From: Campylobacterota bacterium
GTDB lineage: Bacteria > Campylobacterota > Campylobacteria > Campylobacterales > Nautiliaceae
Assembly: GCA_009659955.1 (NCBI GenBank)
Contig: PUXY01000154.1
Coordinates: 1 to 31,700 of the forward strand
Length of the DNA: 31,700 nt
Direction: 5' to 3'
Shown one piece after another: positions 517 through 6,728 of the stretch (the stretch's first letter is position 1; the number at the start of each line of letters is the position of its first letter). The position numbers were made by a program, and so were the translations under genes. The notes below the pieces were generated by a model that had not been told where the DNA came from, did not search any database, and saw only the letters and a program-made list of their open reading frames with translations.

Positions 517-1491
517 TCTCTTTTTTTGAGCCCATTCCCTATTAACTTTTCTACACTTTTCAATATTTGCCCGATGCTCTTCCCAAGTTGATGCAAAAAG
601 GTGATGGTCTCCGCATTTTGTAAAGTAGAGATAGGGGACTTTGGCAGGAAAAATTGCTGCCAAAATCGCTTCCCTTTGAACTACACAAATGGGAGTTGGA
701 GGAAGTCCTTTATATTTATAGGTATTGTAAGGGGAGATATCTTGTCGAATCCGTTGGGGGGTAATTGGGGTATGGGAAAATTTTCCGTAATTTAAACTCC
801 CGTCCATTTGGAGTTTCATTCCCTTTTTAAGTCGATTATAAATTACTGCTGAAACCAGTTTAAACTCTTTGGGATTGGCAGCCTCTTTTTGGATAATGGA
901 GGCGATAATCAGATACTTTTTATAAACCCGGAAATTAAAACCTTCAAAAACTTTCTCTCCTATATGTTTATGCCACTGGTAGGAGACCCCATAGAGATAT
1001 TGGCAAAGTTGTCGGGGAGACATTCCAATGGGAAGTTTGTAGGTATCCGGTTTAATAAATCCTTCTGGAATATTGGAGCATTGGAAAGGGGGGAGTTTCA
1101 ATTTTTTTGCCAGTTCTCTATAGATAAAATAGTTGGTCTCTCCCGGTTTGATGGTAACATCTACCAGTGCTGCTTTGGCGGTGGTAAGTCTATAGAGGAA
1201 TTCTCCTTTGCTCATTTCTGTTTTACCCAAATCTATCCACCCGGCTTGGAGATATTTTCCTGCCAGTTTTATTAGCAACCCATCAAAGAGTGAGATATCT
1301 ACCCCATCTTTTCGGAGTTGTTCTATTGTATAATTTAACCCACCCCGGGGAAGATAGAGCACCCTTTCGGTAATTACCGGTTGTGCCAAATAAAAAAGGA
1401 GAAAGAGGGTGAATAATAAGAAAATTTGGATTAAATCGGTTACAATTGTTACCGCTCTAATGAGTATTGTAGGCTTTGTCTCCGTTTTCAA
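499..1491 (-). CDS. mltG: Endolytic transglycosylase MltG
   Basis: N-terminal TM helix, IIASIIQKEA catalytic Glu motif, VIYNRL, LQMDGS, SPYNTYKYKGLPPTPI. TTG start with SD AAAGGGAG 6 nt upstream. Confidence 0.93.
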   Translation of the reverse strand: MKTETKPTILIRAVTIVTDLIQIFLLFTLFLLFYLAQPVITERVLYLPRGGLNYTIEQLRKDGVDISLFDGLLIKLAGKYLQAGWIDLGKTEMSKGEFLYRLTTAKAALVDVTIKPGETNYFIYRELAKKLKLPPFQCSNIPEGFIKPDTYKLPIGMSPRQLCQYLYGVSYQWHKHIGEKVFEGFNFRVYKKYLIIASIIQKEAANPKEFKLVSAVIYNRLKKGMKLQMDGSLNYGKFSHTPITPQRIRQDISPYNTYKYKGLPPTPICVVQREAILAAIFPAKVPYLYFTKCGDHHLFASTWEEHRANIEKCRKVNREWAQKKREKKEK

Positions 1492-4400
1492 AGGTATCTC
1501 CCTTTATGATTTGAAATTTGGTCCCGTCTGGATTGGGAAACTCTTTTTTCAGATAGATAAAAAGTTGGTCGTTAGGATTTACGACCTGAATATAACCCCT
1601 TCCAATACCCCCTCCAAGCCTTCCGAGTTGGGGAATTTTAGCTTAAAATACTTAAAAGCCCTCTCTCTTATTCAGGAAGTTACAATAAAAAATATTCATA
1701 TTCCCGGCAGTTTTGATGGAAATTTTTCCTTTCTGAATCCCCATTTGGAACTCCATTCCAATCTGGTTTCCACCTCTGGGGAGCTTTTGATTCAACCTAA
1801 ACAGGTGGGGTTGCAACTCAATTACATTAAAACCCCCTTTGTAAATTTCGATAGTTCCTATCTGGAGTTGGACGGGGAGGAGTTGAAAAAAGGACTAAAA
1901 ATTGGAGGGTATGTAAGTCCCGGGGGAGGGGTGCTCTATTTAAATGGGGAAATAAATACCACCCAAGTGACTCTCTTTTTGGAGGGAAAAATAGGGGTAG
2001 TGGGGTATCAAGGGGTAAAAATAGAGGGATTGGATCAACTTTCCGGCAATGTTAAATATATTTTTCCCAAAGCTCAACCCTTTGTCCACCTGAAAATTGG
2101 AAAAGGGAGTGTAGATTACAACAACTCTTTGGCGGTTGGGGAGGTTGATGGAGCCACCATCAATTTCCAAACCGGAGAGAATATCTCTCCCATTTCAGTA
2201 AATTTAAAAGTAGAAAAGTTACATTTGGACTATAACAACTCTTTGGCAACGGGCTCTATGGGAGGGGTTATTTTAAATCTCAAAAGCGACTCCAACTCTT
2301 CCAGATTGGTGGGGGATTTGAATTTAAGCCAATTGAGACTGGATTACAACCACTCCCTTGCTAAAGGGGTAGTAAAAGGTGGAAATATTCGATTTAAAGT
2401 TGGTGGGGGAGGTTCTCCTGAAGTAGAAGGAAAAATTGCTAAAGTTGTAGGGGAATACAACAGAACCAATCGGGGAACTTTGTCCAAACTCTTTTTCCAC
2501 TTGAAAAATAATCAACTTTTTGGGGTAGTAAACCATTTCCGGGCAACTGCCCCCACTTTTTTTGTAAAAAAATTGGCAGGACGGGATTTAAATCTCTCCT
2601 TTGATATTGAAAATCAACTCTTCTCCCTTCTCCTTTGGGGTGTAGGGGTTCAAACAACCCAAATTGAGGGGAACCGGGTTGGGGGATATCTCTCCAAATT
2701 ATTGGTGGCGGGAGCCCTTAAAGAAGGGAAGTTCAGTGGAGAAATGGAGAGGGTAGGGGTCCGGGTAAAGGGGAAATATCCGGTAAAACTCCTTTTCAGT
2801 AAGGGGGGGGTAAATGGGAATTGGAAAAAGATGGAGTATCGGGGAACTCTCCAAAAAGCGGTAATGAATTATCAAAAAAATTTGGTTGATGTAAAGGAGA
2901 TAAATTTAACCTATACCCCCAAAAAAATGGCAGTGATAGGGAAAGTGGTAGAGGTTGAAACCCCCCAAGTAAATGGAAAAATTGGGGGATTGGCGGTGGA
3001 AAAATTGAAAAAAGGAATTGCCTATAGTTTGGCTTCGGGTATTTTTAAAGGTAAACAATTTCCTTTCCAATTCCAATTTCCGACCCTTTTTGGAAACCTC
3101 CATAAAGTAGAGTTACCTTATGGAAGGTTTAAAGCGTTGGGTGCCCCCGGAGAGATAGGGAAAGTTATTTTTAACATTGACCAAAAACGGGGAAAAATCC
3201 AGTGGGTCAAATATAGCGGATTGGAGGTTAGTCCCATTGAGATAAATTTAACCGATAAAATGGCAGTTATCTCCTTTGAAAGTAACACTACCCTCAATCC
3301 CCGCCTCCTCACCCTATTGAAAAAGGGTGCCCATATAAATTTACCTGTGGTGGAAAAAAAAGGGAAAAACTGGATTGTTGGGTGGATAAAAATCCCCTTC
3401 TCCAATCCTTCTCCAATTTATAACATCAATGCCCAAATTTCAGACGCCCTTTTTCAAATTACCACTCTTCCACTGGCTCTGAAAAAAGCTATTGCCCAAG
3501 TAAACCCCGACCAAATCCAATTTCAGGTTTCCAATCTTCTTTTAACCCTTCCCGGAGGGGGAGAGTTTGGATTTACCGGCTCCGGTCAATTACCAATGAA
3601 AGTTAAACGGCTCATTCTGGACGGCAATTTAACTCTCCACTATCTCCCCTTTCTTAAAATGGATAACTTTCCAGAAAAGGCTACTTTAGACCTCAACAAT
3701 CTCCAACTTACCCTTGCCAATTTGGGGGGAAAAGTAGATATTAAAAAAAGTTGGGTGGAATTGCCCCTCCAACCGGTGGTAAAATATACCCCCTTTACCC
3801 CTTTAATTGAAAATGGGGAGGTCAATCTCTCCTATGCTTCACCCCTTAAAATAAATGGTGATGTTCTCCTTACAACCCCCATTTTCCCTGCCCAACCCAA
3901 TCCCCACCTTCTCCGCACCCAAGTTGAAATTGGAAAGGAGATAAATTTAACCCTTCCCCCCTATGGAAAAGTGGAAATTGCCGGGGAAAATATCCATTTT
4001 TCTCTCCACGATATGGAAATAAATTTAACCCAACTTCCAGATTTGGCTCAAAAAGTGGTGGAGAATATGAAAAGGTGGGAGAAAAAAGGGAAAGGGGGAG
4101 AAGTAAATACCACCGCTGAAACCAATGTAACTACCCCCTCTCCAACCGCCACTGCCCAAAAGAGAGAACAGAAGGGGAAAAAGGGGGAAAGTAATTTAAC
4201 CATTGTTGGAGAGCTAAAAAATCTTACCCTTTACTATAATCAATTTACAATTCCTATCCAAAAGGGAAATGTAGATTACCGCCGGGGAGAGTTGAAAAAA
4301 TTGAAAATTTTGGTAGAGCCTCCTTTAAAGGTTGAAGCTTATCAACACAATGGGTATACCATTGCCCGGTGGAATAAATTGGATAAACCTCTCTTTGAAA

Positions 4401-5020
4401 AATTGACGGGATATAAAGAAATTTTTGGGCAATTGAACCTCTATGGAGGAGCCGTTGTAACCCCCTACGGCTACACTTTGGTAAATGTCCGATTGAAGGA
4501 TACCATTATCACCAAAATGAAACTACTCAACAATCTTTTGGCACTTCTCAATACCCTTCCCGCTATTCTCTCCTTCCGCTCTTTGGGATTCAGTGGAAAG
4601 GGGTATAAAATTGAAAAAGGCGGAATTACCGCAATAATTATAGGGGACACAATCCATATTACCCGGGGAGCAGTTTTGGATAAAAATCAAAATCTCAACC
4701 TCTTTTTTTGGGGATACATCTATCCCAAAACCAAAAAGATGGATATGATGATCCGGGTTGTAGTGCCCATTAAAGTAAAATATATTCCGGTAGTGGGTCC
4801 CCTTTTGAGTTATATTGTCTTTGGAAAGAGTGGGGGGCTTGTGGTTGATGTAAAAGCTACCGGAGATTTGGCAGACCCTTCCCTTTCAGTTTCTACCGTT
4901 AAAGATGTGGCTTCTGCTCCCTTTAAAATATTTATGAGGGTGTTGAAGGCCCCATTCAAACTCCGGTCAATTTACCGCCCTGACGATTATTACGGGGGTG
5001 CAATGGAGGGGGAAGAGTAA
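1409..5020 (+). CDS. AsmA-like/YhdP-family periplasm-spanning protein (putative lipid-transport bridge), 1203 aa
   Basis: N-terminal TM anchor, long alternating beta-strand pattern, AsmA-type C-terminus (NTLPAILSFRSLGFSGKGY...IPVVGPLLSYIVFGKSG...KATGDLADP), divergent pairing with mltG as in Campylobacterota. GTG start, SD AAGGAG at 1396-1401. Confidence 0.78.
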   Translation: MNNKKIWIKSVTIVTALMSIVGFVSVFKGISLYDLKFGPVWIGKLFFQIDKKLVVRIYDLNITPSNTPSKPSELGNFSLKYLKALSLIQEVTIKNIHIPGSFDGNFSFLNPHLELHSNLVSTSGELLIQPKQVGLQLNYIKTPFVNFDSSYLELDGEELKKGLKIGGYVSPGGGVLYLNGEINTTQVTLFLEGKIGVVGYQGVKIEGLDQLSGNVKYIFPKAQPFVHLKIGKGSVDYNNSLAVGEVDGATINFQTGENISPISVNLKVEKLHLDYNNSLATGSMGGVILNLKSDSNSSRLVGDLNLSQLRLDYNHSLAKGVVKGGNIRFKVGGGGSPEVEGKIAKVVGEYNRTNRGTLSKLFFHLKNNQLFGVVNHFRATAPTFFVKKLAGRDLNLSFDIENQLFSLLLWGVGVQTTQIEGNRVGGYLSKLLVAGALKEGKFSGEMERVGVRVKGKYPVKLLFSKGGVNGNWKKMEYRGTLQKAVMNYQKNLVDVKEINLTYTPKKMAVIGKVVEVETPQVNGKIGGLAVEKLKKGIAYSLASGIFKGKQFPFQFQFPTLFGNLHKVELPYGRFKALGAPGEIGKVIFNIDQKRGKIQWVKYSGLEVSPIEINLTDKMAVISFESNTTLNPRLLTLLKKGAHINLPVVEKKGKNWIVGWIKIPFSNPSPIYNINAQISDALFQITTLPLALKKAIAQVNPDQIQFQVSNLLLTLPGGGEFGFTGSGQLPMKVKRLILDGNLTLHYLPFLKMDNFPEKATLDLNNLQLTLANLGGKVDIKKSWVELPLQPVVKYTPFTPLIENGEVNLSYASPLKINGDVLLTTPIFPAQPNPHLLRTQVEIGKEINLTLPPYGKVEIAGENIHFSLHDMEINLTQLPDLAQKVVENMKRWEKKGKGGEVNTTAETNVTTPSPTATAQKREQKGKKGESNLTIVGELKNLTLYYNQFTIPIQKGNVDYRRGELKKLKILVEPPLKVEAYQHNGYTIARWNKLDKPLFEKLTGYKEIFGQLNLYGGAVVTPYGYTLVNVRLKDTIITKMKLLNNLLALLNTLPAILSFRSLGFSGKGYKIEKGGITAIIIGDTIHITRGAVLDKNQNLNLFFWGYIYPKTKKMDMMIRVVVPIKVKYIPVVGPLLSYIVFGKSGGLVVDVKATGDLADPSLSVSTVKDVASAPFKIFMRVLKAPFKLRSIYRPDDYYGGAMEGEE
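2084..2425 (+). repeat. Three tandem 114-bp (38-aa) intragenic repeats, plus a degenerate fourth
   Basis: DYNNSLAxG/DYNHSLAxG cores start at 2114, 2228 and 2342 (exact 114-bp period). EYNRT follows at 2453. Confidence 0.8.
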
Positions 5021-5064: not shown

Positions 5065-5931
5065 ATGGTCAAAAAAATAGTTATGGCTGGTCTCACTGCT
5101 GGTTTGTTAATGGCATTCCCCGGAATGAAAGGAATGATGGGAGGACACGGAGGACTCAATGGAAAACCGATGAAAGGATTGACCGATTCCACAGTATTGG
5201 CAACCCTCAATGGGAAACCTATCACCGTCAAAGATGTCAACAACTATCTCCAAGGAATTACCGGCGACCCCAATATCAAGTTGCAACAACTCCCTGCCCA
5301 ACATGTTAAACCCTTTGTAAAAGAGTATATTAAAACCCACCTCATCTATCAAAAAGCCAAATCTGTTACCACAACCCCCCAATTTCAAGAGTTGATGAAA
5401 AAAATAGCAGATGATTATTGGTATCGGACTCAACTGAATACCATCAAAATCTCAGATGAGGAAGCAAAGGCTTTTTACGAAAAGAACAAAGATATCTACT
5501 TTAAAACTACTCCCAAAGTCAAAGTCCGCCACATTCTTGTAAAAGATGAAAAAGAGGCAGAAAAACTCCTTGCCCAATTGAAGGGACTCCACGGAAAAGC
5601 TTTGGAGGAGAAATTTGCCCAATTGGCAAAAAAATACTCCATCGGTCCCAGTAAAGTAAATGGAGGAGAATTGGGGTGGATTGATCCCAATCAAATGGTA
5701 AAACCCTTTGCTCAAGCGGTGGAAAAGATGAAACCGGGAGAATTGAGTCCTAAACCGGTAAAAACCAGATTTGGGTATCACATTATTCTGGTGGAAGGCA
5801 AGAAAAATAATAGTTATATTCCTTTCAAAGAGGTTAAAACCCAAATTGTCGAGTATCTTAAACGGGCAAAACTCAAAAAAGAGATTGACCAAGTTATGAA
5901 ATCTGCCAAAGTGGAATATAAAATTAAATAA
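5065..5931 (+). CDS. Periplasmic parvulin-type peptidyl-prolyl isomerase/chaperone (PEB4/Cbf2/PrsA-like)
   Basis: Signal peptide, VLATLNGKPIT, VRHILV, GGELGW, MVKPF, TRFGYHII. Confidence 0.9.
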   Translation: MVKKIVMAGLTAGLLMAFPGMKGMMGGHGGLNGKPMKGLTDSTVLATLNGKPITVKDVNNYLQGITGDPNIKLQQLPAQHVKPFVKEYIKTHLIYQKAKSVTTTPQFQELMKKIADDYWYRTQLNTIKISDEEAKAFYEKNKDIYFKTTPKVKVRHILVKDEKEAEKLLAQLKGLHGKALEEKFAQLAKKYSIGPSKVNGGELGWIDPNQMVKPFAQAVEKMKPGELSPKPVKTRFGYHIILVEGKKNNSYIPFKEVKTQIVEYLKRAKLKKEIDQVMKSAKVEYKIK

Positions 5932-5951: not shown

Positions 5952-6728
5952 ATGAGGTTACTTTTTATTGGGGATATTGTCGGAAAACCGGGGAGAAAAA
6001 TGGTGGAGAAATGGGTGCCACTCCTCCGGAAAAAGTATCAACTGGAGTATGTTATCGCCAATTATGAAAATAGTGCCCACGGCTTTGGAATTACTTTAAA
6101 AATCTACCACCAACTCTCCCCTTTTATCGATATTTGGACTGGAGGAAACCACACCTTTGACAAAAAGGAGGTTTTACCCCTTTTGGAGGAGGAAAAACTC
6201 CTCCGCCCCCTCAACTATTACGATGTGCCGGGAAAATGGTATTGGGAAGATGAAAAATTGGTAGTTATCAATGCAATGGGACAATATGGTCTCCCCTGTG
6301 GAAAAAATCCCTTTCGGAAATTGAATCGGGAAGTGGAAAAGTGGAAAGAAAAATTTATTTTTATCGATTTCCACGGAGAAGCTACTTCAGAAAAGCAGAT
6401 GCTTTTTCACCTTTTAAAAGGGAGAGTAGGGGCAATTATCGGCACCCACACCCACATCGGCACCGACGACCTCCAAATTGAAGAGGGAACCTGCTATTTG
6501 ACCGATGTAGGATTGACCGGTTGCAATGATGGAATGATAGGTTTCGATTGGAAAAAAGCCCTCCCCGGTTATCTCACCGGCACCCGCTCCAAACTGGAGA
6601 TAGATGATAAATGTAAATCCATTTTCCAAGGGGTAATTTTAGAGTGGAATGGAACCCAAACCTGTTGGGCCATCAAAGTTAAAGGGGACTCCCATACCCT
6701 CCACGAAACCCAATTGGTAAGAGGATAA
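5952..6728 (+). CDS. ymdB: YmdB-like (TIGR00282) metallophosphoesterase
   Basis: GDIVG, NYEN, GGNHT, DFHGEATSEK, GTHTH, TDVGLTG motifs. Confidence 0.92.
   Translation: MRLLFIGDIVGKPGRKMVEKWVPLLRKKYQLEYVIANYENSAHGFGITLKIYHQLSPFIDIWTGGNHTFDKKEVLPLLEEEKLLRPLNYYDVPGKWYWEDEKLVVINAMGQYGLPCGKNPFRKLNREVEKWKEKFIFIDFHGEATSEKQMLFHLLKGRVGAIIGTHTHIGTDDLQIEEGTCYLTDVGLTGCNDGMIGFDWKKALPGYLTGTRSKLEIDDKCKSIFQGVILEWNGTQTCWAIKVKGDSHTLHETQLVRG

Follow-up and report, generated by a model that had tools for sequence, protein, structure and literature searches.

The window analysed here is a stretch of 31,700 nt on contig PUXY01000154.1 of assembly GCA_009659955.1, from an uncultured vent member of the Campylobacterota related to the Nautiliaceae. 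The assembly comprises 1.32 Mb in 156 contigs, is 84% complete and contains no 16S rRNA gene. On the forward strand the window carries a YhdP-family (AsmA-like) gene at 1409..5020, a single open reading frame (ORF) with a GTG start encoding 1203 amino acids (aa), the N-terminus of which aligns with the N-termini of its orthologues. The protein is predicted to begin with a transmembrane helix (aa 5–28; 1421..1492, +), an inner-membrane signal-anchor that AlphaFold2 models as a helix with predicted local distance difference test (pLDDT) values of 86–92 and that is conserved as a hydrophobic N-terminus in the orthologues. At the other end lies the conserved YhdP C-terminal domain (4169..4882, +), recognised by a Pfam match below the cut-off and modelled separately (residues 925–1203) with a pLDDT of 86. 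Spread over 1583..4201 (+), from Asn 61 to Asn 929, are 20 copies of D/E-X-N-X-S/T, the extended sequon of the oligosaccharyltransferase PglB.

The preliminary description had called the protein AsmA-like, which can be narrowed to the YhdP family. An exhaustive phmmer search retrieved 472 homologues, among them proteins of 950–1420 aa with E-values of 1e-16 to 1e-44. Homology and architecture place the protein in the YhdP family: eight of nine homologues tested pass the cut-off of PF13116 (YhdP) with 47.7–71.6 bits, and it shares the N-terminal helix and the beta-rich body. NCBIfam models did not match it. The YhdP and TamB Pfam models recognised no other AsmA-like gene in the 84%-complete genome, where the search with TamB (PF04357) remained without a match. 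In E. coli, YhdP, TamB and YdbH are AsmA-like intermembrane phospholipid transporters (PMC8593681, PMC8912898, PMC10345924), and from that work (PMC8593681, PMC8912898) we infer that the 1203-aa protein likewise carries phospholipids to the outer membrane.

By regular expression, the motif N-X-S/T (X not P) occurs 23 times in the protein, and in 20 of these instances an Asp or Glu stands at position −2. The first extended sequon is DLNIT (1583–1597) and the last ESNLT (4187–4201), while LGNFS (N76), GENIS (N258) and LKNLT (N938) lack the acid. Translation and motif search thus reproduced exactly the peptides and coordinates listed in the preliminary description. In 5000 composition-preserving shuffles of the protein the extended sequon appeared 0.65 times on average (standard deviation 0.80, maximum 6), and N-X-S/T 8.2 times. 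The control motifs stayed at or below the expected numbers: K/R at −2 (0 observed versus 0.95 expected), the reversed motif (0 versus 0.62), D/E-X-Q-X-S/T (0 versus 0.36) and D/E-X-N-X-nonS/T (3 versus 5.3), an acid moved to −1 or −3 (1 and 2 versus 0.7) and D/E-X-D-X-S/T, which was not enriched either. Asp and Glu together make up only 8% of the protein; 20 of the 23 Asn residues with an acid at −2 also have Ser or Thr at +2. The sequon excess is specific and far beyond chance.

The last ~270 aa had been described as free of sequons. Indeed, none follows N929, but in this protein alone the gap is not significant: its last 263 aa contain 12 Asn, for which about 1.3 N-X-S/T would be expected. 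The sequon-free C-terminus of the single protein was therefore rejected as a signal, and only the family-wide depletion reported below is significant.

Beside the YhdP-like gene lies a YceG/MltG gene in divergent orientation (499–1491, −); on the other side follow genes for a PpiC-type rotamase (5065–5931, +) and for YmdB (ymdB, 5952–6728, +). The adjacency to YceG was seen again at the locus of P0046, a distant homologue that is rich in sequons. The other exported proteins encoded in the window contain 0–2 sequons each, as had been noted; elsewhere in the genome there are smaller proteins in which sequons are denser.

PglB and the footprint of the −2 acid in the proteome

A search of the genome for pglB, which the preliminary description had proposed as a check, returned a single STT3/PglB homologue of 757 aa (G000:C97:745-3018; STT3, 79 bits). 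It aligns over its full length with Campylobacter lari PglB (5ogl/3rce; E 1.9e-77) and retains the WWDYG and MxxI motifs together with the equivalents of D56, R147, D154, D156, E319 and R331. Hence, both the catalytic residues and the Arg that reads position −2 are present; R331 contacts the acceptor's −2 acid through a salt bridge (PMC4894442). The closest named relatives, at 47–56% identity, come from hydrothermal metagenome-assembled genomes labelled Campylobacterales, Nautiliaceae, Nautiliales and Nitratiruptor. A gene for a phosphoglycosyl transferase of the PglC type (Bac_transf) follows pglB immediately downstream and is truncated where the contig ends. The contig (G000:C97:1-4939) appears to carry an operon of an upstream SIS-domain gene, pglB and the truncated pglC-type transferase gene, with the undecaprenyl-PP phosphatase gene bacA in divergent orientation nearby. 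Several relatives (G005, G015, G040, G071, G080, G115 and G145) encode more than one full-length PglB homologue, namely two or three, whose separate genes lie on different contigs or far apart.

The genome-wide count was performed on 1268 crudely called ORFs. Among them, the 1203-aa protein is the strongest outlier for an acid at −2 (20/23, binomial 4e-16). The next outliers have 8/8 (300 aa), 8/9 (335 aa, a pilin-like protein), 5/5 and 5/6 and possess N-terminal hydrophobic, pilin-type or membrane-anchor-like segments. These four smaller proteins, identified by their sequon counts, are encoded at G000:C51:5786-6688, C57:681-1688, C2:3567-4349 and C128:3432-4475; their Pfam hints (RodZ C-terminal domain, prepilin N-methylation motif, thioredoxin-like) are weak and all below cut-off. 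By density, the 1203-aa protein with 16.6 sequons per 1000 aa ranks below three of these smaller outliers, while it is first by count.

Across the proteome, an acid precedes N-X-S/T at −2 in 32% of cases in proteins with an N-terminal hydrophobic segment (29% if the 1203-aa protein is excluded). In all other proteins the value of 12.5% matches the frequency of D/E. The exported class shows the excess despite its lower D/E content. On these counts, therefore, the proteome bears the footprint of an oligosaccharyltransferase that requires the −2 acid.

Sequons in YhdP orthologues with and without PglB

The excess extends beyond this one gene. A set of 114 full-length homologues, clustered at ≤50% identity, contains 457 sequons where 95 are expected (4.8-fold), with control motifs at 0.7–1.2-fold. 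The C-terminal 170 residues of these proteins account for 19% of all residues but contain only 5.9% of the sequons. Seventeen orthologues of 949–967 aa from the GTDB family to which the vent genome belongs have 2–11 sequons among 11–22 N-X-S/T each; in total, 86 of 268 N-X-S/T have the acid, at a D/E content of only 5–7%. Some homologues are equally dense, e.g. a 976-aa protein with 20 sequons on a metagenome contig from JGI.

Since YhdP orthologues are found throughout the order, lineages with and without PglB could be compared, in 64 genomes of the order with a completeness of ≥95%. In the PglB-negative family f10 the acid was present at 16 of 113 N-X-S/T, versus 15.8 expected (ratio 1.0), and in the PglB-negative part of f25 at 4 of 55, versus 6.1 (ratio 0.65). 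The PglB-positive families gave 87/186 (f12, 3.7-fold) and 35/76 (f22, 3.9-fold), followed by f15 (2.8-fold), f4 (2.75-fold) and f17 (1.9-fold); only the PglB-positive part of f25 (5/59) departs from this pattern. Pooled, the PglB-positive orthologues of the Campylobacterales reach 183/523 (3.1-fold) and the PglB-negative ones 20/168 (0.9-fold), corresponding to an odds ratio of 4.0 and a Fisher p of 2e-9; this p overstates the evidence because related genomes are not independent, and it is the pattern across separate families that counts. The sequon excess of YhdP orthologues is thus tied to the presence of PglB across the relatives, as judged from these sequence counts. 

This comparison also bears on the idea that D/E-X-N-X-S/T marks a structural element of the beta-groove family, for instance a strand end, a turn or a cation-binding loop, and is unrelated to glycosylation. 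The motif does sit within an alternating polar/hydrophobic strand pattern, often at strand ends, and three copies belong to a repeated DYN(N/H)SLA module. Against this, PglB-negative lineages show no excess (ratios 1.0 and 0.65) and neither does E. coli YhdP, in which the acid is found at one of nine N-X-S/T. Moreover, site positions are rarely conserved, the variants D/E-X-N-X-nonS/T, D/E-X-Q-X-S/T and D/E-X-D-X-S/T are not enriched, and unrelated exported proteins of the genome share the same −2 acid bias. With PglB-negative orthologues at expectation, the structural explanation is largely refuted and we consider it highly improbable.

Turnover, origin and predicted placement of the sites

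At most of the 20 positions the 17 orthologues of the same family have other residues, and few of the sites are common to other genera. Five sites are located in lineage-specific insertions, which add up to ~220 residues and explain most of the difference in length (1203 versus ~960 aa). A relative of the same genus (G001), 40–61% identical and with its gene split over three contigs, has seven of the sites in common (61, 105, 613, 626, 740, 806 and 872); six are missing from its assembled parts (183, 499, 846, 900, 906 and 929), and it has two sequons of its own.

Three repeat cores with a period of 114 nt (38 aa), each with a DYN(N/H)S sequon, lie at 2114..2361 (+; direct-repeat family D2), within a lineage-specific expansion of about aa 185–490 that contains insertions relative to the 17 orthologues and is modelled with pLDDT <50. 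Over positions 1868–2700 of the window (about aa 155–430), including the DYN(N/H)SLA modules, the pLDDT is 21–32 and no secondary structure is predicted. The 15-mer GAGATAAATTTAACC, reported previously as identical at three positions, was confirmed in all three: it encodes EINLT at 2897..2911 (+, Asn 499), 3239..3253 (+, Asn 613) and 3938..3952 (+, Asn 846). A one-base variant is found at 4016–4030, and there is no further instance in the 1.32 Mb assembly. The 15-mer uses minor Ile and Leu codons, a combination with a probability of 0.0045, and other E-I-N-L-S/T peptides are encoded by different codons. The copy at Asn 613 is shared with the same-genus relative. Those at 499 and 846 are absent there and have 27 of 31 bases in common, which suggests that recent short-patch copying, judged from only these three short copies, may have seeded EINLT sequons. 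Finally, an insertion rich in Lys, Thr and Gly (aa 892–921; 4082..4171, +), gapped in the 17 orthologues and in the same-genus relative and predicted to be disordered (pLDDT 43–56), contributes Asn 900 and 906. Three sequons had been placed in it; the third, N929, lies just after it, at a position that is aligned in relatives.

The AlphaFold2 model, built from 97 sequences, has a mean pLDDT of 67.4 and consists of a helix at model residues 2–25 (protein residues 5–28), followed by strands through residue 1158. It is confident for about protein residues 30–150 and 560–1190, with pLDDT >80 over most of model residues 1–140 and 560–1180, and unconfident for 161–548 and 900–922. With the whole model, the best Foldseek match was the bridge-like lipid-transfer protein LPD-3 (9cap, E 5e-5) at a template modelling (TM) score of only 0.10. 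LptD and apolipoprotein B followed, also with very low TM-scores, as is expected for a long flexible rod. All sequons are downstream of the predicted signal-anchor helix. Two of the 20 sequon Asn are found in loops adjoining strands of the confident regions. Besides positions −2, 0 and +2, which are polar by definition, the flanking positions −1, +1 and +3 are hydrophobic in 70%, 60% and 60% of the sequons, versus a background of 42%. This alternation fits the placement that the preliminary description had proposed, with the sequon side chains together on the polar face of an amphipathic strand, a position suggested by the periodicity.

The rapid turnover of positions, even within the genus, lends itself to another interpretation, in which the sequons are genuine PglB-compatible sites but neutral by-products with low or patchy occupancy, tolerated in a long periplasmic protein that evolves fast and is prone to repeats, and the glycans have no role in the bridge. 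Duplication of the 38-aa module, and possibly copying of the 15-mer, generated some of the copies. Many sites are in strands, where access for PglB would be poor once the protein has folded, and PglB-positive genomes of f25 show no excess. Drift, however, predicts about 0.65 sequons and not 20. It would not raise N-X-S/T 2.8-fold, nor would it remove nearly all N-X-S/T without the acid. In addition, the excess appears independently in the five PglB-positive families named above and is gone without PglB, and the conserved C-terminal domain is depleted of sequons. We therefore regard neutrality of the sites as unlikely.

A candidate multi-site PglB acceptor between the membranes

Taken as a whole, the best explanation is that the protein is a YhdP-family bridge that serves as a multi-site PglB acceptor, with its sites under selection, and we hold this to be probable. 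The presumed lipid bridge would then very probably be sugar-coated. In the sequence of events that we propose, the protein would be inserted by the Sec pathway via its signal-anchor, with one N-terminal helix in the inner membrane and about 1170 mostly beta-strand residues across the periplasm. The unfolded or partly folded periplasmic chain would meet PglB, the active site of which is periplasmic, at the inner membrane, and the genome's own PglB would move the lipid-linked oligosaccharide en bloc to many of the 20 Asn. The chain would subsequently fold into a glycan-decorated rod, the sequon-poor C-terminal domain of which engages the outer membrane. PglB prefers flexible, exposed acceptor sites, so that sequons embedded in strands would need to be modified before folding. 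In lineages with PglB, selection would have led sites to accumulate while their positions changed rapidly. In this genus, they would have arisen in part by module duplication, by insertion of a disordered linker with sequons and possibly by short-patch copying of the EINLT 15-mer.

The likely benefit would be that a long amphipathic rod is stabilised or protected in a hot, protease-exposed periplasm. N-glycans make CmeABC, an envelope-spanning complex of C. jejuni, more thermostable and assist its assembly (PMC7683400). By analogy, glycans may plausibly stabilise or protect the vent protein too, all the more so given its habitat. The sequence analysis shows the sequon statistics, the pglB gene with its motifs, the family membership by homology and the association with PglB across relatives; occupancy by glycans and their identity, their position on the outer face, an armouring role, lipid transport and a selective benefit are the parts of this reading that we infer.

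Several observations weigh against a glycosylated, selected YhdP-type bridge. The match of the protein itself to PF13116 (E 2.4e-8, 32.8 bits) stays below the cut-off of 46 and covers only the C-terminal part, and a fold search with the C-terminal domain returned only generic open-sheet or barrel matches (TamAB, 9xdd_B, E 0.02). Conservation of Arg331 alone gives no guarantee of the −2 rule (PMC4894442). No further part of the pgl pathway was located, as the contig breaks off within pglC; no search aimed at the glycosyltransferases and the flippase was made. In four PglB-positive genomes of f25 (G062, G075, G150 and G158) only 5 of 59 N-X-S/T have the acid, i.e. no excess, and in the Nautiliaceae-like family, genomes in which PglB was detected differ only weakly from those in which it was not. 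Of the sequon Asn, 7 of 20 are in strands of confident regions, often ≤3 residues from a strand end, and 11 of 20 fall into low-confidence segments with pLDDT <60; several strand-embedded sequons may be poorly occupied. As a separate observation, the PglB proteins of the four f25 genomes are the most divergent from the vent PglB (E 1e-25 to 1e-45).

A more far-reaching version can be formulated, which we put forward tentatively as possible rather than probable. In Campylobacterota with PglB, N-glycosylation would be selected for and form an inherent part of the lipid bridge between the membranes. Glycans would ensheath the polar face of the groove and so keep the rod in solution and resistant to proteases and heat, or else adjust how it passes through the peptidoglycan. 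Hot-vent lineages would have pushed this to ~20 sites per chain, seeded by duplication, linkers and copying of the 15-mer. If true, loss or inhibition of PglB would compromise the lipid homeostasis of the outer membrane.

PglB, its sequon and multi-site glycoproteins are already known, and no new system is described here. What appears to be new is that a YhdP-type bridge is a preferred PglB-dependent carrier of sequons across the Campylobacterales, with the vent gene at the extreme. AsmA-like bridges are a recently recognised route of bulk phospholipid supply to the outer membrane, and it is a matter of continuing debate why PglB modifies such a large number of envelope proteins. The two questions meet in the YhdP orthologue, with its family-wide and PglB-dependent excess of sequons, and a link of protein glycosylation with envelope lipid transport would, if true, be one that we have not seen described. 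In the literature we found no report linking AsmA-like proteins with N-glycosylation, and the glycoproteome supplements for C. hepaticus and C. fetus contained neither AsmA or YhdP names nor sequon peptides of f12 orthologues. The Campylobacter orthologue may be Cj0530, which the papers naming it call only a periplasmic protein. The f12 orthologues, which are of Campylobacter size and have 5–11 sequons each, make site occupancy, bridge stability and outer-membrane lipid balance testable in tractable species. In addition, the vent protein as a natural acceptor scaffold with many sites, and its PglB of the thermophile type, could be of use for glycoengineering.

Two known systems offer themselves for comparison. 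E. coli YhdP belongs to the same Pfam family by homology and is laid out in the same way, with a single inner-membrane helix at the N-terminus, a long periplasmic body rich in beta-strands and a C-terminal domain that is conserved. In contrast, it has one extended sequon among nine N-X-S/T in a bacterium without PglB, whereas the vent protein has 20, and the vent protein additionally contains the ~220 residues of lineage-specific insertions by which it differs from the 949–967-aa orthologues of its own family. The substrates of C. jejuni PglB, e.g. CmeA and CmeC of the CmeABC complex, are likewise periplasm-exposed envelope proteins and carry D/E-X-N-X-S/T sites (PMC7683400; for the sequon rule, PMC4894442). 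The enzyme, too, is alike, being in both cases a single-subunit PglB that has the WWDYG motif and an Arg331 equivalent. The vent protein differs from the C. jejuni substrates in the 20 candidate sites on one chain and in its uncultured vent host related to the Nautiliaceae.

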